A stretch of DNA of 64,000 bases from an uncultured Candidatus Sumerlaeota bacterium. GTDB lineage: Bacteria; Sumerlaeota; Sumerlaeia; MVZB01; JAJFLK01. Under the pieces are notes generated by a model, which searched no databases, was not told where the DNA came from, and was given only the letters and a program-made list of their open reading frames with translations. The stretch covers positions 50,595-114,594 of the forward strand of contig CAZRCZ010000016.1 in NCBI GenBank assembly GCA_964598765.1, given 5' to 3'. Below, one piece after another: positions 21,480 to 31,563 of the stretch (the stretch's first letter is position 1; the number at the start of each line of letters is the position of its first letter). Both the position numbers and the translations under genes were made by a program.

Positions 21480-22421
21480 TTATTTTTCAATCATTTCAAG
21501 TTTGACGTCGAGGTTCTCGGGGATGGAAGTTCCCTTGATTGCTTCCATCGCTTTTTCCACCGCGACGCGCCCCATTTCCGCCGGATTTTGAGCGACGGAA
21601 CCGAGCATGGCTCCCTTCTTGATCGCGGCTCGCGCGTCCTCAATCGCGTCGAATCCGACGACCTTGATTTGCCCCGTCTTTCCCGCGCCGGCAATGGCTT
21701 CAACCGCGCCAAGCGCCATCAGGTCATTGCAAGCGAAGAGGCCGTTCACGTCCGGATGGCTCTGTAAAATGTTTTGAAAAACATTGAACCCTTGATCGCG
21801 CTCCCAATTCGCCGTTTGCGACGCGACGATTTGAACGTCGGGCGAACCCGCGATTCCGTCCTTGAATCCCCTTAGGCGGGCGTCGCCCGTCTCATGACCG
21901 GGAATGCCCTCGAGAACGGCCACCTTCCCCTTGCCGCCGAGCGCCTTGGCCATGAATTCTCCCGCGATTTTGCCTCCCGCGTAATTGTCCGACCCGATGA
22001 ACGTCGTCGTTTTTGCTCCGGCGGCCTGAGCGGTCTTGGCGTCCACGCGGGCATCCACGATGAGGACCGGAATTCCCGCTTGGTTCGCCTTTACCACGGC
22101 CGGCACAATTTCCTTGGAGCCGCTGGGCGTGATGCATAGGGCGTCAACCTTGCGTTGAATCAAATTTTCGACGATCTGCATTTGTTTTTCGATGTCAAGT
22201 TCGCGCTCGGCCGCTTGGACGACGAGCTTGACCCCCGATTTTTTTTCTGTTTCCCGCGCTCCCTTCTCCATGTCAATGAAGAACGGATTGTTGAGAGTCT
22301 TCATTACGAAACCGATGGTCGGCTTTTTTTCCGCCGGTTCTTCCTTGCGTCCGCACGCCGACAAAACGAGGCCGAGCGTGGACAAGGCAAACCCGAATCG
22401 AATCCCTTTCGATAATTTCAT
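21480..22421 (-). CDS. sugar ABC transporter periplasmic substrate-binding protein (RbsB/ribose-xylose family)
   Basis: Lipoprotein-type signal (LSACG). GFVMKTLNNPFF..., DALCITP and ACNDLMALGA are blocks typical of periplasmic-binding-protein type I sugar binders. ATG at 22421 overlaps the upstream gene stop (ATGA). Confidence 0.8.
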   Translation of the reverse strand: MKLSKGIRFGFALSTLGLVLSACGRKEEPAEKKPTIGFVMKTLNNPFFIDMEKGARETEKKSGVKLVVQAAERELDIEKQMQIVENLIQRKVDALCITPSGSKEIVPAVVKANQAGIPVLIVDARVDAKTAQAAGAKTTTFIGSDNYAGGKIAGEFMAKALGGKGKVAVLEGIPGHETGDARLRGFKDGIAGSPDVQIVASQTANWERDQGFNVFQNILQSHPDVNGLFACNDLMALGAVEAIAGAGKTGQIKVVGFDAIEDARAAIKKGAMLGSVAQNPAEMGRVAVEKAMEAIKGTSIPENLDVKLEMIEK

Positions 22422-25400
22422 GCGCGCATCCTTTCGGTCACGGATCGTAACAAATCGGTCGTCTTGTTCGATTGGAGATTTGGCGATGCTTCGGTTTCCG
22501 TCCAAGGCTTGGCAAGAATTCCGAGCCATTTGTCCATTTCCCTGCCGGGAGACACGCGCGAAAAAATTGCCTCGCCGATGTGTTCACCCAACTCACGGTA
22601 GCTCTCCCATTGCGCCTCGTCGAAATCCTGATCCACCGTCGGCTCCTGCGGAAAAGTCTCCATCGCGCTCTTGTAATTCAGCAGGTCCTCGGTTTCGTTG
22701 CCGCTCAGGCTCGGCTTGACGACCAAAATGACCGAAGCGGGCGCGCCGTATTTTCCGGTGAATTCCATTTCTTTTCCGCATTCCACCGGATAGAAGACCC
22801 AAGCCAGCGCGGCATGAGGTCCGATGGCGGCGCCGGTTGGAATCCCCTCCAAGTTACGCTCGCGCAATTGCTCCAATGTTCCAATGACGGAACGGAAGTC
22901 GTGATGGACGTAACGACGAATGTCATCCTCGTTGAAGAATCGAATCTCCGCTCCGAAATCGAGCCGCGCCTTGCGCACAAGATTTGCCAGATCGGCAAAT
23001 TCATAGGCGGGATCCATACCGTCGTCCAGAATAACGATGAAGGGGAGTCGGCGGCGGATCAATTCGTACGCTCCCGTGTTTTCAAAGTGACCGCCGTCGG
23101 AAAGGTTCCAATACTTGCGGGCCGGACCGTGGAAGCGTCCGAGAAATTCGTCAAGGAGATAGGACTGCGCGGGGAAGAGCGCGCTGAATCCCTCGCCGAT
23201 TTTCCGGCTCCAACCGATCGGCGTCCGGATGCTCCGCGAATGGGGCGCGATGCCGCTGTTCCACCAGTAGCCGAGCCGAAGGTTGAAGTAGGCGTGGAGC
23301 AGACTCACGGCGGGATTGGTGGCCGGTCCCATTCCCGTCGAGAAAGCCGCGCCCGAAACCGACATCCATGATCCAAGCGAAAGCGTTTCCACGCGGTTGA
23401 CCGTATTGAATATTTGAAATTGACCCCGTTTGGATTCGGAGTCGGCGCGATAAACGACGTCGCGTTCCGGCAACCATCGCTCCAGATATTCCACGAACCA
23501 ATCGTCCCGAAGGTCCGCGACCATTTCGCTTTCGGTCGTCCTTCGGTCAACCCGCGAGCCGGGAGGATGTTTCCAGACGGCGTGGTCCGACTTGCCGACG
23601 CTGATGCCGCAGGGTCCGACGGTGAGACCCAGTCCCTTTCGGTCCCGCCATTCGATTTGGGATTTGCCGCTCACCGTCTCGTTGAGGGTGATGTTGAGAA
23701 GATGAAGCGGGCCGCCCCGTCGCTGAGGCGCGTAATCGTGGAAATAAACCTGATCCCCTTGAATGATGTCGGTGACGTTTTGTCCTTCCGGTTTCCATCG
23801 TCGGCGGTTGGACGCTCCGAGATAAGCGCGGGTAAGTCTCGCTCCGTAGAGCGCCTGCAACGAGGAAAGATTGACGAAATTCACGAAGAGACCGACCAGC
23901 AATCCGCAAAACGCGAAGGCGAAGAAGAAGAAAAGAATCGCCGGAAGGCTTCTTTCGCCTAGAGGCAGGCTTTCAATCCTGCCCGCTGGATTCGGTTGCT
24001 GTTCCGCGCTTGCCTTGACCCCCTCATAAAGCACCCGACCCAAATCCCCATGAGGCGACTTCCACCGCCACGCGAAACCGTGTCCCAGCGCGTTGACGGC
24101 GACCAACGTGAAGAGCACGCACGACACCGCCAATATCCAGACGAAAGCGGTCCTCAAAATGCTTATCCACGAATGGGTCAACGACCCCGACAACAAAGCT
24201 TTGATTTGATGCGCGAGTCCGGCGAGCAGAACCAAAAGACTGAGCGCAAGGAAGGATTTCAGATTAAAGAGAAAGGCCGTCGCGCCGACGTGATGGACCA
24301 CCGCATAAACCGTTTGGCCGAGGGAATCAATCACCGAAAAAATCCAGAGCGAAGCCGTGACGATCAATCCTTCCGCGAGGGCCGTCGTCAAATTTCGGCG
24401 GATGCGGGAGGCGGTTTCCTGCGGCGAAAATTCCTGCGGATTTCCCGATGCGGCCTGCGCGATGAAATAGTACAGCGCACCGAAACCCGCGACGATCACC
24501 ATCGTCAATCCCGCCAGATAGACGAGCGGTTGGTCGGCGCTTCCGGGAACGTAGGGAAGCGCGATCCAATAAATCAATCCCAGACCGACGGTCAACCAAA
24601 ACGCCAATCCCAGCCGCCAATTTCTTCGGTGAAATCGCAGGGGCGTCAGCCAAAACGCCCAACCCATCGGCAAGACCCAAAAGATGAAGGGAAGCAAAGG
24701 GGTCCAAACCCATGGACTCCACCAAATTCTCGATCCCGCATGAGGGGCCGGAAGGGGAAACCGCGCCAGAATTTCGCGCAATGGCCCGACGTGGCTCAAT
24801 ACCTCCCGAAGCGCGTCGGCTCCCATGAAGACCATCAGGAACAGGACGCAAAGGGTCAAGTGGATCGTCACCCAGTTGCGGAGTTGGAACGCGACGCCGG
24901 TCCAGAGGTCCGCCGTTCCGTTGGGCGAAAGGTAGCGTCCGTTCTCGCGCAAGAATCGCACCGAAGGGGAGCGTGAATCGGCGAGCGTCGCCTCCACCTC
25001 CTCCACGCGCCGATTGTCACCCGCGCGCTTTTTCTCATGATTGCCCGATTCCCGATCAATCCGCGAACGGGTGAAGAGGCTTCCCAAGAATCCTCCGAAA
25101 TAGCCGCCGCCCGAAACCGTGGAAAGGTAATCAATTCTGCGGATCAGGCCGCGCCGCGCCAGCGATTGAAAAAGCCCCAGCGAAAAAGTCGCGCTCCGTA
25201 TGCCTCCTCCCGAAAGCGCGACGCCAAGGCGGTTGTCTTCTTTCTCGGCGGATGGGAGTCCGGCCGCTTTTCGACGCTCCGCGAGTTGATGACGTTCCGC
25301 TTCGCGGAGTTGGTCAGGATAATAGCGATCGGGCGGGTGCGGGGAATGATCCCTCGTTCCGCGGGCGCGGGGAGGCGAAGATTTTTTGAGGATGCGTGGC

Positions 25401-25459
25401 TGGGGCTTCCACGCGCCATTGCCCCGATTCGAGGAGCCGTTATTGGATCGTTTAGCCAT
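22418..25459 (-). CDS. patatin-like phospholipase domain protein with large polytopic membrane insertion
   Basis: Patatin oxyanion motif GVALSGGGIRS and serine-hydrolase block STVSGGGYFGG lie near residues 80-125. The catalytic Asp block LSDGGHFENTG lies near residue 770. Between them are about 8-10 predicted TM helices (residues ~190-560). Confidence 0.7.
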   Translation of the reverse strand: MAKRSNNGSSNRGNGAWKPQPRILKKSSPPRARGTRDHSPHPPDRYYPDQLREAERHQLAERRKAAGLPSAEKEDNRLGVALSGGGIRSATFSLGLFQSLARRGLIRRIDYLSTVSGGGYFGGFLGSLFTRSRIDRESGNHEKKRAGDNRRVEEVEATLADSRSPSVRFLRENGRYLSPNGTADLWTGVAFQLRNWVTIHLTLCVLFLMVFMGADALREVLSHVGPLREILARFPLPAPHAGSRIWWSPWVWTPLLPFIFWVLPMGWAFWLTPLRFHRRNWRLGLAFWLTVGLGLIYWIALPYVPGSADQPLVYLAGLTMVIVAGFGALYYFIAQAASGNPQEFSPQETASRIRRNLTTALAEGLIVTASLWIFSVIDSLGQTVYAVVHHVGATAFLFNLKSFLALSLLVLLAGLAHQIKALLSGSLTHSWISILRTAFVWILAVSCVLFTLVAVNALGHGFAWRWKSPHGDLGRVLYEGVKASAEQQPNPAGRIESLPLGERSLPAILFFFFAFAFCGLLVGLFVNFVNLSSLQALYGARLTRAYLGASNRRRWKPEGQNVTDIIQGDQVYFHDYAPQRRGGPLHLLNITLNETVSGKSQIEWRDRKGLGLTVGPCGISVGKSDHAVWKHPPGSRVDRRTTESEMVADLRDDWFVEYLERWLPERDVVYRADSESKRGQFQIFNTVNRVETLSLGSWMSVSGAAFSTGMGPATNPAVSLLHAYFNLRLGYWWNSGIAPHSRSIRTPIGWSRKIGEGFSALFPAQSYLLDEFLGRFHGPARKYWNLSDGGHFENTGAYELIRRRLPFIVILDDGMDPAYEFADLANLVRKARLDFGAEIRFFNEDDIRRYVHHDFRSVIGTLEQLRERNLEGIPTGAAIGPHAALAWVFYPVECGKEMEFTGKYGAPASVILVVKPSLSGNETEDLLNYKSAMETFPQEPTVDQDFDEAQWESYRELGEHIGEAIFSRVSPGREMDKWLGILAKPWTETEASPNLQSNKTTDLLRSVTERMRA

Positions 25460-26950: not shown

Positions 26951-27106
26951 GGTTGGATTGATGGGGTATTTGCCTTTGCGCCACCCTACTCGCTCCTTGT
27001 TCTCCTTGCCATGATTTAAGGAGAACTTTGTTGACTTCGACGGAGAACAGAGCCATTTTTGCGGACGCGGAAATGATCCGTGGCGGGACAGGCGGGGCGT
27101 GTGGCA

Positions 27107-27397
27107 ATGTCCGAGTTGTTATTCGAATGGGACGGGCAAAAGGCGGAGAAGAACAAACTCAAACACGGCATTTCCTTCGAGGAAGCCAAGGCGGTTTTCA
27201 ACGATCCCTTTGCCATCACCATTCCCGACCCGTTCCATTCCGAAAAGGAAGACCGGTGGGCGGACATTGGCCTCGCCGGCAATGACAAACTTCTCGTGGT
27301 ATGGTATGCTGAGCGTGGTGACCGCATCCGCCTGATCGGAAGCCGACGCGCGACACGGAGGGAACGAAGGATTTATGAAGGCGAAGAAGAGCGATAA
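27107..27397 (+). CDS. BrnT-family toxin (DUF497)
   Basis: MSELLFEWDGQKAEKNKLKHGISFEEAKAVFNDPFAI...RIRLIGSRRATRRERRIYEG is a classic DUF497/BrnT sequence pattern. Confidence 0.75.
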   Translation: MSELLFEWDGQKAEKNKLKHGISFEEAKAVFNDPFAITIPDPFHSEKEDRWADIGLAGNDKLLVVWYAERGDRIRLIGSRRATRRERRIYEGEEER

Positions 27398-27632
27398 GAA
27401 TACCGATGAAATGAAACGGGAATACGATTTTTCGGGCGGCGTCCGGGGAAAACATTATCGCGCCTACCGCGCCGGCCACCGCGTCCGGATTACCCGGAAG
27501 GACGGCTCCGTCGAAGAGCATCGCTTCACTCTCGAGGATGGCGCAATTGTGCTGGACCCGGATCTCCGCTCCCGATTCCCCAATTCGGATTCCGTGAACC
27601 AAGCCCTCCGTTCTCTTGTCGTCCTCCGTTAG
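27375..27632 (+). CDS. putative BrnA-like/CopG-family antitoxin
   Basis: Overlaps the 3' end of the BrnT gene. The EYDFSGGVRGKHY motif is typical of small antitoxins encoded downstream of DUF497 toxins. The C-terminal part is divergent. Confidence 0.5.
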   Translation: MKAKKSDKNTDEMKREYDFSGGVRGKHYRAYRAGHRVRITRKDGSVEEHRFTLEDGAIVLDPDLRSRFPNSDSVNQALRSLVVLR

Positions 27633-27727
27633 GAACAATCGCCTTTTCCGAATCAATCCTTTGCCGGATCGTAGGTCGGGTCTCCAGACCCGACACCAAT
27701 CCGCAAGACGACCGCGAAGCGGTCGAA

Positions 27728-27890
27728 TGTCAATAGCCGTGGGTAAAACCCACGGACCCCAATCCCCCCGTTTTTATTCCGACCCTGCAGGGGTCGAACC
27801 AAATTTTTGCATTCCCGATTTATTCGACCCCTTCAGGGTCTTCCCTTGTTGCGCGCCTGTTTCCGTGGGTTTCACCCACGGCTATTGACA
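27728..27890. mobile_element. MITE-like nested palindromic element (28-bp terminal inverted repeats GTCAATAGCCGTGGGTnAAACCCACGG)
   Basis: Left end tgtcaatagccgtgggtaaaacccacgg (27728-27755) and right end ccgtgggtttcacccacggctattgaca (27863-27890) are inverted copies. Each contains its own hairpin. Two further internal hairpins (cgaccctgcaggggtcg; gaccccttcagggtc) are followed by T-runs. Confidence 0.5.
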
Positions 27891-28095
27891 TTGGACACCT
27901 TCGGCGTCCCAACCGCGTTTTATGGTATGGGCAAGAGAGGGGTCGTGTAAAATTCGGACCTGCGCCCGCCGCAAAGAACGCCAAGGAAAATTCTCACGCA
28001 GACGCGCGGAGATCGCGGGAGAGGTATCGGATTTCACGGCATTTTTGTTTGCGCGTTTCTAAATCACGACATGGACAGGTGGAAAGGCAAAGGCA

Positions 28096-28800
28096 CTATT
28101 TGGCCCAATTTCCTAAAGGATTGCGCGATGGGGGATCCAAGTCGGGGAAATAGGCTCGAAAAATGGTCAAGAGGTCGTTGTGCAACCCATCTATGTCAAT
28201 CTCATACTTTTCATGAACCACGCCATCGTTGATCTGCATTTTATCGCAACCAAAACAGAAAAGCAGATCATAGTGACTGCCATACTGGTCCAAAATGTGG
28301 ACGACGATATCGGCCTCGAACACACAGGCTTTAATCACGTTGTCCTCGGGGAGGCCGCCGGGGGATATTCCGTACAAGATCGAATTGGAAAGAACTTTGG
28401 CGAGATCAAGACCTGACTCCGCCGACATTTTGACGGGACCCTTCCGAACTCTGAGATGCTTCAGCATCCACGCGTCTTGTCCCACCTCGATGGCTTTCAG
28501 GCTTTTTTGATCAAGGGTATTTGTCGTCCTATCATCATCCAATTTCCGAACACGATAAACGCTCAATTCGCGAGCTTTTCGGATGTCCAGCGGCTCGAAA
28601 TCGCCGTAAAATCGGCGGAAAAGATCGCTTCGGCAATCTCTGCAGATCCTGTTCTGGGATCTTTTGGCTGGTCTCGTTAGCGGGCTGAAGTTGATCCATC
28701 CTGCTTCCGTCATTCCGAGAGCAACGCCCAATCCAAATACAATCACCAGCAGGAGAAAATTAATCGCTTTGCGGTTGGCCCTCTTTTCAAAACCACTCAT
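28096..28800 (-). CDS. single-pass membrane protein of unknown function (low-GC cassette gene 3)
   Basis: N-terminal TM (AINFLLLVIVFGLGVALGM) followed by a ~200-aa domain with no recognisable motif. GC is clearly lower than the surrounding genome. Confidence 0.55.
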   Translation of the reverse strand: MSGFEKRANRKAINFLLLVIVFGLGVALGMTEAGWINFSPLTRPAKRSQNRICRDCRSDLFRRFYGDFEPLDIRKARELSVYRVRKLDDDRTTNTLDQKSLKAIEVGQDAWMLKHLRVRKGPVKMSAESGLDLAKVLSNSILYGISPGGLPEDNVIKACVFEADIVVHILDQYGSHYDLLFCFGCDKMQINDGVVHEKYEIDIDGLHNDLLTIFRAYFPDLDPPSRNPLGNWAK

Positions 28801-28842
28801 GCGAAGCTGAACCCTTCCGTTTGTTCGGAGAGGTATTGATCA

Positions 28843-29415
28843 TCAAACAGATTTTTGTGCCTGAAAAAGTAAATCAATACCTTCATCAAGACTGTTCAGA
28901 CGCTTCTTGAGCGCAATGGATCGGTCAAAACTCACTACGTCTTCGGGCGCGCAATCCCGTAGAAGTTTCTTCAAGTCGGCGAGAGATTTGACGGTGTAAA
29001 ATACCCCGCGAGGCGAGAGGTAAACTAGCGCCTTCTTCCCTTGCTCGACGAGTTTCACGACGCTGTTCAGCGTTCCTTTGCTCTTGCCGTCCCATATCGC
29101 AAATCCGCAATCCGCCTCGTCGCACATTCGTGAATCCTTCTGGCTGTAGAACGCGAAATCCTTCTCGGCACGCTCCGATTTCACGGCGACGACTTCCCAA
29201 TGACCGACATTGTTTCGAGGGTCGCCGTTCATGCAGTAAATCCTTACGTTTGCATAACGCCTACGCGCGAAGTATTGTTGAACAATGCGGTCCGCTCCAT
29301 TGGCGTCGCCGACCAAAACTGTCATACCCCGCTCAATAATGTTGTCCAATCTTTTTTGGGACTCAGGACTCAACCTTGAAATCCGCCTCGATCCCTGAAT
29401 GAAAACGCGCTTCAT
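28843..29415 (-). CDS. SLOG-superfamily (DUF2493/YpsA-like, DprA/LOG-type Rossmann) protein
   Basis: MKRVFIQGSRRISRL...GMTVLVGDANGADRIVQQY...AIWDGKSKGTLNSVVKLVEQGKKALVY follows the DUF2493 pattern (VxxGGARGADRLA...PGGRGTADMVRRA). Overlaps the upstream gene by 4 bp. Confidence 0.55.
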   Translation of the reverse strand: MKRVFIQGSRRISRLSPESQKRLDNIIERGMTVLVGDANGADRIVQQYFARRRYANVRIYCMNGDPRNNVGHWEVVAVKSERAEKDFAFYSQKDSRMCDEADCGFAIWDGKSKGTLNSVVKLVEQGKKALVYLSPRGVFYTVKSLADLKKLLRDCAPEDVVSFDRSIALKKRLNSLDEGIDLLFQAQKSV

Positions 29416-30083
29416 CGTTTGCTCCTCGTGTGCGTCAGGGCAAGGAAATATACGGAGGATGCTCTCCCCTGATTCAAAATAGTAGCGGTGGCGGATCGTG
29501 CGGTTGCTCCGGATCGGTAAAGATCGTCGAAAAGGAGGATTTGCCTTCCCTCCATCAATTCCTTGGAGGCGCGAAAGGCGTTCTTAAGAAGCTCGATCCG
29601 CGCCTGAAAATCAAGAATATCCTTTAGCTGGGGAGTGTCCTTGATCTTGATGAGACATTCGACGCAACAAGAAACGGCAAGTCCCCTTGCCAAACGATCC
29701 GCGATGAGCGAGACAGGCTGAATATTTCGGAAGGGATTGGAAGGGGGCACGGGTACGACGAGATCGGGCCGCCAATTCCTCCTTACACAAAACGCAACGG
29801 CGGATTCAACGATTGCGCCGACGACCGAGAAGTCCCCCTTATACTTCAACCGATAAAGCGCTTCGCCGATCTCGCTTCGTTTGGTGTCGAACATTTCGTG
29901 TCCAAACTCATCGTAGCCCAAAAAACCACTTGAGATCGTATGAACGTCAAGAGCGAATCCCTCCCTCCATTCGCCCGCACGAAGTTTCCTTTCCGTGTGG
30001 TTGAGCATACTTCTTTTTCGCGCTAGGTATCCTCGTTGCATCCGGAATATAGGCAGTTTCGCGGAAACAGGGCGATCAGCCAT
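29412..30083 (-). CDS. ComF-like type I phosphoribosyltransferase domain protein
   Basis: PRPP-binding loop ILLFDDLYRSGATARSATATIL (cf. type I PRTase VLLVDDVLTTGATL). ComF-like upstream block DLVVPVPPSNPFRNIQPVSLIADRLARGL. Lacks a ComF N-terminal zinc finger. Confidence 0.65.
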   Translation of the reverse strand: MADRPVSAKLPIFRMQRGYLARKRSMLNHTERKLRAGEWREGFALDVHTISSGFLGYDEFGHEMFDTKRSEIGEALYRLKYKGDFSVVGAIVESAVAFCVRRNWRPDLVVPVPPSNPFRNIQPVSLIADRLARGLAVSCCVECLIKIKDTPQLKDILDFQARIELLKNAFRASKELMEGRQILLFDDLYRSGATARSATATILNQGRASSVYFLALTHTRSKR

Positions 30084-30120: not shown

Positions 30121-31563
30121 TTACTTTGCCTGTTGAATCTTATTCAACTCCGCCTTGACCTTGTCCACGTCCGCCACCATCGGTTGGTCCACGAGTTTGC
30201 CGTCGGCGCTGAGTTTTTTGGCCATCAGGGTCTGGAGAATGACCGGATGCGGTTTTTCCTGCGCGTCGGGGAATTTGCCGAGCACGTGGCCGTCCTTGAT
30301 GTTCAATCCCAGTTTCTCATCCGCGATGACGCAATGCGACCAAGCGTTCAACATTTCGTTCTCGGTCCATTCTCCCCTCCGGACTTCCAAATCGGGATGT
30401 TTGACTTCCGGGTTGCTGGCGGAATTGTTGTAGTGCGCCGTCGTGCGGATGCCGGAACCCTTCGGCGCAAAGATCGGCTCGGCCAGCCAGTAATTGGATT
30501 GCCACTGCCAACTGTAGCGCGGAACGTCGGTGATGAGTTTCTTCGTTCCGTCGGTCAGGACGTTTTCCATCGTGTATTTGAAACCGCGCAGATGCATGTG
30601 CGCGCCACTGCTCAGGATGAGCGTGTCGTAGAGGAGATTGGCTTCCGCCGAGAGGACGTAATCCTCCTGATTCGGCTTGATGTCAATGTCGTTGTCCACG
30701 CCGATCAAGCCGACGATCCGCACGCGCTTGTCAATCCGTCCTTGCGCGAATTTCACACCGAACATGATGTGGTCGGTCATTTCCTTGTCCCTGCCGTTGT
30801 AGTGGACCTGAATCGCCAGATTCGATCCCTTGGGAAGAAGATACGCAGTCCCATCGGGATAGCGCATCGGACGGCAACCGGGAAGGAAACTGCCGATGTA
30901 ATCGCCGCCGGGAGTCGCCGCCTGTCCGATGACGTCGCCGGAGCCGTTGTTCTTGAAGGGCTTGGGGGAAAGGGCGAGGTTGGCGTGGTGGATGACCCCC
31001 TGCGCCGTGCCGCGAATTTCCCACTCTTGGATCCACAGGTCTTCGGTCAGCGCGGAAGTGTCGAAAACAAATCCCTTGTAGCCGATGTCAATATCCCTTG
31101 CGTTGGCGGGGATTGTAAAATCTTGCGTGGCGTGGAAAATCAAATCGGGCTTGCCCATCGTCCAAGTCTCCTTGTATTCGGGAGCCTTGGGGGCGTCGGT
31201 GAGGTTGCCCAGCGGGGAACCTTGATCCACCCACTTGGCGATGGTTTGAATTTGCGCCGAACTGAGGCTTCGGTCCTCCTTGTATTTCATCTTGCTTGAG
31301 TCGGGATGCCACGGCGGCATGGTCTTATCCAACACGGCTTTCTTGATGGATTTCGCCCAAGGACGGACCTCTTCGTAGCTCATCAGCGACATGGGGCCGA
31401 TTTCGCCCGCGTGGTGGCATGAGGCACAGTTGTTGTAGATAATCGGCGCGACGTCCTTGGCGAACGTGACTCCCGCCGGGGCGTTGTCATCGGCCTTCGC
31501 CAGCGTGGCGGCGAACAAGATGCCGGCGGTCCCGATCCAATTTTTCAATTTCATGGTCCTCAT
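30121..31563 (-). CDS. secreted PSCyt1-type cytochrome c domain protein with possible copper type II monooxygenase-like C-terminal region
   Basis: Signal peptide. FAKDVAPIIYNNCASCHH heme-binding CxxCH in a PSCyt1-like context. Downstream His clusters (VIHHANL, HYNG, AHMHLRG, NEML) resemble the CuH/CuM sites of DBH/PHM-type monooxygenases. This assignment is tentative. Confidence 0.5.
   Translation of the reverse strand: MRTMKLKNWIGTAGILFAATLAKADDNAPAGVTFAKDVAPIIYNNCASCHHAGEIGPMSLMSYEEVRPWAKSIKKAVLDKTMPPWHPDSSKMKYKEDRSLSSAQIQTIAKWVDQGSPLGNLTDAPKAPEYKETWTMGKPDLIFHATQDFTIPANARDIDIGYKGFVFDTSALTEDLWIQEWEIRGTAQGVIHHANLALSPKPFKNNGSGDVIGQAATPGGDYIGSFLPGCRPMRYPDGTAYLLPKGSNLAIQVHYNGRDKEMTDHIMFGVKFAQGRIDKRVRIVGLIGVDNDIDIKPNQEDYVLSAEANLLYDTLILSSGAHMHLRGFKYTMENVLTDGTKKLITDVPRYSWQWQSNYWLAEPIFAPKGSGIRTTAHYNNSASNPEVKHPDLEVRRGEWTENEMLNAWSHCVIADEKLGLNIKDGHVLGKFPDAQEKPHPVILQTLMAKKLSADGKLVDQPMVADVDKVKAELNKIQQAK

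Follow-up and report, generated by a model that had tools for sequence, protein, structure and literature searches.

Two overlapping genes on the minus strand of a 64,000-nucleotide stretch from an uncultured Candidatus Sumerlaeota bacterium (contig CAZRCZ010000016.1, positions 50,595 to 114,594; the whole stretch is referred to below as the window) encode a type I phosphoribosyltransferase (PRTase) and a protein of the SLOG superfamily, and probably constitute a mobile toxin-antidote pair for addiction or abortive infection (Abi), built to the design of ShosTA and PsyrTA/RqlHI. In these anti-phage toxin-antitoxin (TA) systems toxicity resides in a PRTase domain and is neutralised by a DprA-like member of the SLOG superfamily (PMC11961720, PMC12961424, PMC4670107, PMC9122126, bioRxiv 10.1101/2022.05.11.491447). 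An earlier sequence-based prediction (the original prediction) had described the two genes, together with a third gene for a membrane protein, as a candidate conflict or defence module of an undescribed kind. A conflict or addiction role is judged likely for the PRTase and SLOG genes, given their pairing, the homology of the PRTase to known toxins, antitoxin-type fusions among the SLOG relatives and an asymmetry in gene decay. The kind itself is not new, since ShosTA and PsyrTA/RqlHI already combine a PRTase toxin with an antitoxin of SLOG/DprA-like type and the present PRTase matches both PADLOC toxin models. The window holds one acquired TA-like cassette beside a BrnT module, and not a new multi-gene defence system.

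The three minus-strand open reading frames (ORFs) of the original prediction and the ATGA overlap of the PRTase and SLOG genes were found at exactly the predicted coordinates, and the motifs that it quoted (ILLFDDLYRSGATARS, GSRR, VLVGDANGADR and WDGKSKGT) were all located in the translations. The features of the cassette are:

29412-30083, minus strand: PRTase ORF, 223 aa as listed; putative toxin/effector
28843-29415, minus strand: SLOG-fold ORF, 190 aa; putative antidote/regulator
29412-29415, minus strand: ATGA stop/start overlap of the PRTase and SLOG genes, evident in the sequence itself
29502-29537, minus strand: phosphoribosyl pyrophosphate (PRPP)-binding loop of the PRTase, LLFDDLYRSGAT, residues 183-194, with the acidic pair D186/D187
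28096-28800, minus strand: ORF of an orphan single-pass membrane protein, 234 aa

Folds and families of the two proteins

Assignment of the product of 29412-30083 to the type I PRTases was borne out by PADLOC toxin models and by a fold search. The window protein matches the PADLOC model of PsyrT at E=3.7e-16, its residues 68-222 falling on positions 536-687 of the 689-position profile, and that of ShosT at E=1.5e-7. In the family sample (112 homologues for conservation and PADLOC counts, and 146 distinct PRTase-SLOG pairs for co-evolution), all 112 PRTases match both PsyrT and ShosT (best E-values 2.4e-23 and 5.6e-12, respectively), and about 24 of the 112 match the PADLOC PRTase_III-A models of retrons (best 1e-5). 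An AlphaFold2 (AF2) model predicted from a deep alignment (predicted local distance difference test score, pLDDT, 87.7) and its matches in the PDB demonstrate the Rossmann-like PRT fold of type I PRTases. Foldseek placed Helicobacter pylori ComFC (ComF; 7p0h) as the best match (E=3.4e-7), and ShosT (8zvc; E=7.5e-5) gave the highest query TM-score (0.50). The 64 PDB matches at E<=1e-3 are essentially all PRTases, including ComF, PurF, OPRT, APRT and ShosT. Residues D186, D187, S191, G192 and A193 of the PRPP loop are invariant across the 112 homologues, and the Asp-Asp pair is kept in 145 of the 146 distinct pairs. Toxicity of ShosT requires the PRPP-loop Asp (D331A/D332A; PMC11961720), as does toxicity of RqlH (D663A; PMC4670107).

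Structure prediction with deep alignments provides the decisive evidence for both fold calls, because Pfam gives none for the PRTase and a sub-threshold YAcAr match for the SLOG protein. The window PRTase has no Pfam match at E<=1 and so does not reach the gathering threshold of PF00156; a precomputed PF00156 match is carried by a minority of its homologues. Sequence-only searches of the PDB with the PRTase, as a single sequence and as a profile, returned generic PRPP-loop matches (E ~0.01-1), and the same kind of search with the SLOG profile gave no link to ShosA or DprA. The structural route was needed because sequence-only PDB searches connected the proteins with none of ShosA, DprA and ShosT.

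The true start of the PRTase is probably M26, at position 30008, which yields a protein of 198 aa and makes the annotated start 25 codons too long. This start is likely because homologues are ~197 aa in length, alignments begin at residues 26-37 and the AF2 pLDDT is below 50 over residues 1-21. The absence of a ComF-type zinc finger, as originally predicted, was confirmed. Within the family, the two cysteine columns conserved above 30% (residues 140 and 143) lie inside the PRT domain, and the N-terminal region has none of the four cysteines of the ComF finger. The two columns form a CxxC at residues 140-143 (29655-29666), present in ~73% of the family with the consensus CxDC, fewer cysteines than a ComF-type zinc finger requires. 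The score of the PRTase against the NCBIfam ComF model (TIGR00201) is 43.3 bits, versus a cut-off of 233.55; NCBI names the family 'ComF family protein'. Both proteins of the module are basic, with median isoelectric points of 9.4 and 8.95.

The SLOG-fold assignment of the product of 28843-29415 was likewise upheld. Residues 2-142 of the protein form a Rossmannoid core with the fold of the SLOG superfamily, and ~45 aa of helical tail make up the C-terminus. The Gly-rich loop and the GxD/E motif are both present, with G8-S9-R10 and G36-D37-A38-x-G40-x-D42 invariant in the 114 sequences that served as the SLOG family sample for conservation and hidden Markov model (HMM) counts. The GxD/E motif has been described as the substrate-binding motif of SLOG proteins (PMC6459960). 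Twenty residues of the family, mostly polar, are invariant and are located in the classic SLOG ligand loops. By structure comparison the model most closely resembles DprA, ShosA and YpsA, and the comparison did not separate the protein into a DprA clade versus YpsA or LOG clades. The Pfam YAcAr score is 15.5 bits versus a cut-off of 28.2, and the gathering scores of PF02481, PF10686 and the YpsA family are not reached by the window protein. Weak matches to YAcAr occur in 45 of the 114 relatives (best 1.6e-5) and to DprA in 44 (best 7.5e-4). The family is large and unannotated and comprises 316 clusters in a word-indexed search; an exhaustive profile search gave 526 representatives (at 50% identity) at E<=1e-30 and 2,790 at E<=1e-3.

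Many SLOG relatives carry a C-terminal helix-turn-helix (HTH) domain of antitoxin type, namely PF21716, 'probable addiction module antidote protein' (3e-20, 4e-18 and 2e-13), or HTH_37 (5e-17). This C-terminal PF21716/HTH domain accounts for the RefSeq names 'addiction module antidote protein' and 'HTH regulator', the former being the label of plasmid SLOG copies, beside a 'ComF family protein'. Other members of the family are fused to Abi_alpha (2e-14), an abortive-infection effector, to HEPN_AbiU2 (4e-5, sub-threshold) and to domains that process N-glycosides or ADP-ribose, including NADAR (2e-23), DUF488-N3a (3e-8) and DUF4326 (5e-5, just under the cut-off). The latter fusions suggest a portable regulatory or sensor module that serves several effectors besides PRTases.

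Some further observations concern the annotation of SLOG relatives. Fused proteins include P0316, P0338, P0303, P0361, P0326 and P0310. Two apparent PRTase-SLOG fusions (P0049 and P0347) were not counted, as they look like frameshifted or truncated PRTase remnants joined by gene callers. The N-terminal SLOG domain of ~160 aa has been left unannotated in three plasmid homologues (L184 5001-5861, L186 5001-5846 and L188 5001-5840). The window protein also matches positions 22-138 of the 500 positions of phrog_289 (E=9.6e-11); the N-terminus of phrog_289 is probably a SLOG domain, and its PHROGs label, 'GTP-binding domain', may be misleading.

Pairing, gene decay and distribution

The PRTase and SLOG genes are found together with great regularity. 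Two sets of loci were drawn from different collections, one anchored on the SLOG gene and the other on the PRTase gene, each from the best 80 matches. Of 81 SLOG-anchored loci, 73 have a same-strand PRTase gene immediately upstream (72 of 80 species-genome loci, and the window's own contig), and the two genes overlap by 4 bp in 52 of these 73. Conversely, the SLOG gene lies directly downstream in all 72 PRTase-anchored metagenome loci with room for it, and both genes are present in 20 of 20 viral or prophage-like IMG/VR contigs with upstream room. Over the 146 distinct pairs, the PRTase and SLOG distance matrices are correlated at r=0.83, versus a maximum of 0.12 in 1,000 permutations, and mean divergence is equal for PRTase and SLOG proteins; the two genes have therefore been inherited and exchanged as one unit. 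Adjacent, co-directional and translationally coupled genes that are inherited as a unit are a general property of TA modules.

Decay of the pair is asymmetric. In SLOG-anchored loci with room (n=74), the PRTase gene is fragmented in 13 and absent in three (16/74 together), and in PRTase-anchored loci (n=68) the SLOG gene is fragmentary in one (p=1.5e-4). When clear truncations and absences only are counted, the figures are 8/74 versus 1/68 (p=0.035). As in TA modules generally, where the antitoxin outlives loss of the toxin, the PRTase practically never occurs in the absence of the SLOG protein. At several loci a short stretch ahead of a solo SLOG gene still matches the PRTase profile, but over no more than its final ~35-70 positions (L015 7903-8001, L046 3456-3560, L020, L032 and L056). 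At these loci the putative toxin gene has been deleted from its 5' side, and the overlap junction and the SLOG gene have been kept.

The pair occurs in at least 280 species genomes from many phyla, on 101 plasmids, 56 of them conjugative, and on prophage-like contigs of IMG/VR; 22 of the plasmid records are from Klebsiella. A tblastn search of 50,697 phage genomes with the SLOG protein gave no match. The distribution is mobile and patchy and extends to plasmid maintenance regions, again as is general for TA modules. The pair adjoins rep on Listeria pLI100, ParA/ParG, ParDE and a resolvase on a Klebsiella IncFII plasmid, and a resolvase on Xanthomonas pXAM48. It is embedded among CBASS, ImmA/IrrE and VapC genes in Agrobacterium, and among NTase, HNH and SIR2 genes in Sinorhizobium. 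Two Neisseria gonorrhoeae records of ~2.17 Mb that are filed as plasmids in PLSDB (NZ_CP119142.1 and NZ_CP119140.1) are clearly chromosomes. Each has a 42%-identical SLOG match at a site with no annotated feature, possibly a pseudogene or a gene missed by annotation.

On chromosomes, the flanks of the pair are unrelated between loci. Among 34 chromosomal relatives, the 136 nearest neighbours match 137 Pfam families, mostly housekeeping, and none of these families occurs in more than three loci. The context is variable because the neighbours differ and no Pfam family exceeds three chromosomal loci. A gene-neighbourhood comparison had been proposed to tell a variable island from a conserved housekeeping context; its result is a variable and not a conserved housekeeping context, which favours a mobile element, with a stand-alone-cassette pattern that is typical of TA modules and not of residency in defence islands. 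The defence island envisaged by the original prediction was not borne out in the window either, where none of ten flanking proteins matches PADLOC, and chromosomal neighbours elsewhere are mostly housekeeping.

Known relatives, mechanism and alternative explanations

ShosTA, also named the DprA-PRTase system of P2 hotspots, resembles the present pair in having two genes, a type I PRTase with the PRPP-loop Asp-Asp and a SLOG-superfamily partner, and in its mobile plasmid and prophage contexts. A ShosT-type PRTase domain is present in the window protein, and structure comparisons with the two models rank ShosT and ShosA among their best matches. The present proteins differ in being smaller, at ~198 and 190 aa, and in sharing 12-15% identity with the solved ShosT and ShosA structures. 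ShosT, of 424 aa, has at its N-terminus a pyrophosphatase-like hydrolase domain that occupies residues 1-164; ShosA exceeds 313 aa and bears a SAM domain at the N-terminus and a degron at the C-terminus (PMC11961720). The present PRTase lacks the hydrolase domain, as its PRT domain and N-terminal strands fill residues 37-223 and leave no room for 164 aa; the present SLOG fold begins at residue 2, with no SAM domain before it. The PADLOC model of ShosA does not match the window SLOG protein at E<=1, and matches 5 of its 114 relatives (best E-value 0.008).

The C-terminus of PsyrT is the best HMM match of the present PRTase. The likeness is confined to the last ~150 of 689 profile positions; the present PRTase, of at most 223 aa, has no RecQ-like helicase, unlike PsyrTA/RqlHI. 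The PsyrA model does not match the window SLOG protein and matches one of the 114 relatives, at 0.048. Since neither antitoxin model picks up the SLOG partner, PADLOC 2.0 cannot call the pair as either ShosTA or PsyrTA. With the accessory domains missing and the ShosA and PsyrA models unmatched, the pair is an unnamed compact relative and not a member of either system. In RqlHI, toxicity maps to RqlH's PRTase domain, and RqlI binds that domain directly (PMC4670107). We regard RqlHI as the most plausible model for the minimal pair.

Two further systems share the ComF-like PRTase. ComFC is the closest solved fold (7p0h), and its N-terminal beta-strands extend the PRT sheet. The present PRTase differs from it in having no 4-Cys zinc finger and a score far under the ComF cut-off, and the pair is mobile and patchy and not part of a core genome. 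Type III-A retrons employ a ComF-like PRTase as an abortive-infection effector, and their models are those matched by the ~24 family PRTases. In contrast to these retrons, the present locus has no nearby reverse transcriptase or msr/msd non-coding RNA and no Rfam match, and the partner is a SLOG protein. A gene pair of a YpsA-family protein and a PRTase was the subject of a one-line contextual remark, with no name, experiment or mechanism (Brzozowski et al. 2019, PMC6459960, citing Burroughs et al. 2015). That pair may belong to the present family; the best partial matches of the window SLOG protein are YAcAr and DprA, not YpsA. The literature yielded no name or experiment for the present PRTase-SLOG family. 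Thoeris-like signalling was considered and rejected, as the window SLOG protein has no effector domain and no TIR gene is conserved nearby. The comparison with Thoeris in the original prediction, with a signal maker, a sensor and a membrane effector, fails for want of a conserved effector; effector fusions (Abi_alpha, HEPN) occur in rare SLOG relatives only.

In the mechanism that we propose, the PRTase would use PRPP through its Asp-Asp loop to harmful effect, possibly, by analogy, by disturbing nucleotide pools or DNA integrity, and the co-translated SLOG protein would keep it in check. Loss of the module, or phage shut-off of host synthesis, would then free the PRTase toxin. The SLOG protein is assigned the role of antidote or regulator on the basis of the HTH fusions, the asymmetric decay, the addiction and defence contexts and the fusions of Abi_alpha, HEPN and NADAR type. 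Neutralisation might occur by direct binding of the SLOG protein to the PRTase, as for RqlI and RqlH's PRTase domain, an option favoured by the tight translational coupling and the co-evolution of the two genes. It might instead be linked to DNA or RecA, as for ShosA, both proteins being basic, or the SLOG protein might sense a ligand or enzymatically undo the N-glycosidic bond in the nucleotide product of the PRTase, an option to which the invariant residues of the ligand loops are relevant.

The last of these options leads to an unlikely alternative, in which the SLOG protein is an enzyme or ligand sensor acting on the N-glycosidic bond that the PRTase makes. The PRTase would make an unusual nucleotide that a LOG-like SLOG hydrolase destroys, as a minimal 'write/erase' pair in the style of DarTG (cf. 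DarT/DarG), or the SLOG protein would be a sensor whose ligand frees the PRTase, as a nucleotide-gated switch. However, where the LOG motif PGGxGTxxE has its catalytic Glu, the present SLOG family has an Asn (WDGKSKGTLNN; N118 conserved in at least 90%), the basic character of both proteins fits nucleic-acid binding as well, and the characterised relatives neutralise by DNA/RecA binding (ShosA) or by direct binding (RqlI), not by catalysis. We give little credence to the pair being a cargo with which plasmids and phages counter host defence, the SLOG protein (together with the PRTase) degrading or sequestering immune signals of the host that are nucleotides or derive from ADP-ribose. A role in countering ADP-ribose signalling has been proposed for viral YpsA-like SLOG domains (PMC9503650), and the pair is found on plasmids and prophage-like contigs and has relatives with NADAR and DUF4326 fusions. 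Most copies, however, are stand-alone chromosomal cassettes, with no match among the sequenced phage genomes searched; the obligate partner is homologous to proven toxins, and the asymmetry of decay fits a toxin with its antitoxin.

Even less probable is a housekeeping role in DNA uptake or recombination, as a competence couple like ComFC and DprA, or in nucleotide salvage. In competent bacteria, DprA, a SLOG protein, is a physical partner of ComFC (PMC9005727), ComFC is the best solved structural match of the PRTase, which bears the NCBI ComF name, and the SLOG model resembles DprA. These points are set against the missing 4-Cys zinc finger, the TIGR00201 score of 43 versus 233 bits, and the lack of recurrence near the pair of competence genes (comFA, comEC and others; 80 loci) or of salvage genes. 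The patchy occurrence across phyla, the presence on conjugative plasmids and in prophages, the antitoxin-type HTH fusions and the frequent decay of the PRTase also argue against a housekeeping pair. The least probable explanation is the one put forward in the original prediction, a three-gene nucleotide-signalling defence system with the membrane protein as its third component or effector. The transmembrane (TM) gene has a low GC content at third codon positions (GC3, 0.566), like the pair, and starts 42 nt downstream of the SLOG stop on the same strand; co-transcription is possible, since no terminator is predicted between them. The protein has a single hydrophobic segment near its N-terminus (~residues 12-36). 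A search of 5.8 billion clusters returned only the protein itself, and it has no match in Pfam, PADLOC, NCBIfam, PHROG or the PDB. It has no homologue in 80 related genomic loci, nor in any of the ~180 related loci taken together. In the 80 loci the two-gene arrangement hardly varies, and it has no recurrent third neighbour. The TM gene is an orphan specific to its lineage, carried as a passenger within the same acquired low-GC patch and outside the conserved module.

Some points weigh against the toxin-antidote reading itself. The PRTase domain of RqlH expressed alone was insufficient for toxicity (PMC4670107), so a stand-alone PRTase of 198 aa may be non-toxic. The window and the chromosomal relatives lie outside recognisable defence islands, and defence-gene neighbours (CBASS, SIR2, VapC) occur on some plasmids only. 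In the comparison of decay, some of the fragmented PRTases may be long-read frameshift errors, and the two anchor sets, each of the best 80 matches, are not the same. Toxicity, rescue and defence are all inferred for the PRTase-SLOG family.

If the pair is a true TA/Abi module, the theme of a PRTase toxin with a SLOG antidote would reach a third lineage, be linked evolutionarily to the ComFC-DprA competence pair and gain a minimal system for biochemistry. The family reduces the ShosTA/PsyrTA design to its two core domains, of ~198 and ~183 aa, and is carried by clinically relevant conjugative plasmids. The acceptor substrate of the PRTase and the logic of neutralisation in ShosTA and PsyrTA are still unresolved (PMC11961720, PMC12961424). 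Because the accessory domains of ShosTA and PsyrTA are absent, the present pair could be the simplest system in which to find the acceptor substrate of a toxin PRTase.

Composition and surroundings of the locus

The original prediction had noted the low GC content of the cassette. It is indeed the lowest-GC 2-kb stretch in the 64 kb (bottom 0.24% of 2-kb windows), with a value of 50.5%, not ~45%, versus a mean of 56.7% (standard deviation 2.6%, 2-kb windows). The GC3 of the three cassette ORFs is 0.56-0.58 versus 0.64-0.76 for flanking genes, and the foreign composition of the cassette is thereby upheld. Flanking direct repeats, tRNA genes and Rfam families were looked for around the low-GC patch and none was found, so neither integration hallmarks nor patch boundaries can be defined. 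Scans of the locus for promoters and terminators gave nothing above shuffled expectation. Three features adjoin the patch:

27080-27397: BrnT (PF04365, E=1.5e-26)
27375-27632: ORF at the BrnA position, overlapping BrnT, 85 aa
27710-27908, no strand: palindromic element at the edge of the low-GC patch; context, outside the module

Of the BrnT/BrnA module named in the original prediction, BrnT is supported by its PF04365 match, and the ORF at the BrnA position is without HMM support, with no match in Pfam, PHROG or PADLOC. Both have a native-like GC3 (0.64-0.67), unlike the neighbouring cassette. Situated at the boundary of the low-GC patch, the palindrome separates the BrnT module from the orphan TM gene. 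Its outer arms of 47 nt (27710-27756 and 27862-27908) are 87% complementary, and an inner 18-nt inverted repeat is nested within them. The element had been called MITE-like, after miniature inverted-repeat transposable elements. The palindrome is real, and the label is unproven because the element occurs once in the 64-kb window, where zero matches are expected by chance. It may be a bidirectional terminator or the remnant of a mobile element.

The gene directly upstream of the cassette (30121-31563) encodes a secreted-looking protein of 480 aa with a CxxCH haem motif and a weak match to Cytochrome_CBB3 (1.8e-4). It ends 38 nt ahead of the annotated PRTase start; a start at M26 would widen the gap to ~112 nt and therefore leave room for a separate PRTase promoter. 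A protein of 1013 aa (22418-25459) has an unusual architecture, with a patatin-like phospholipase N-terminus and a long hydrophobic central region. Its patatin match is sub-threshold (E=2.4e-5, 25.1 bits versus a cut-off of 27.7), and it has no match in PADLOC. The neighbours of the cassette within the window encode hydrolases, TatD, a DUF1801 protein, a binding protein and a protein like cytochrome c.

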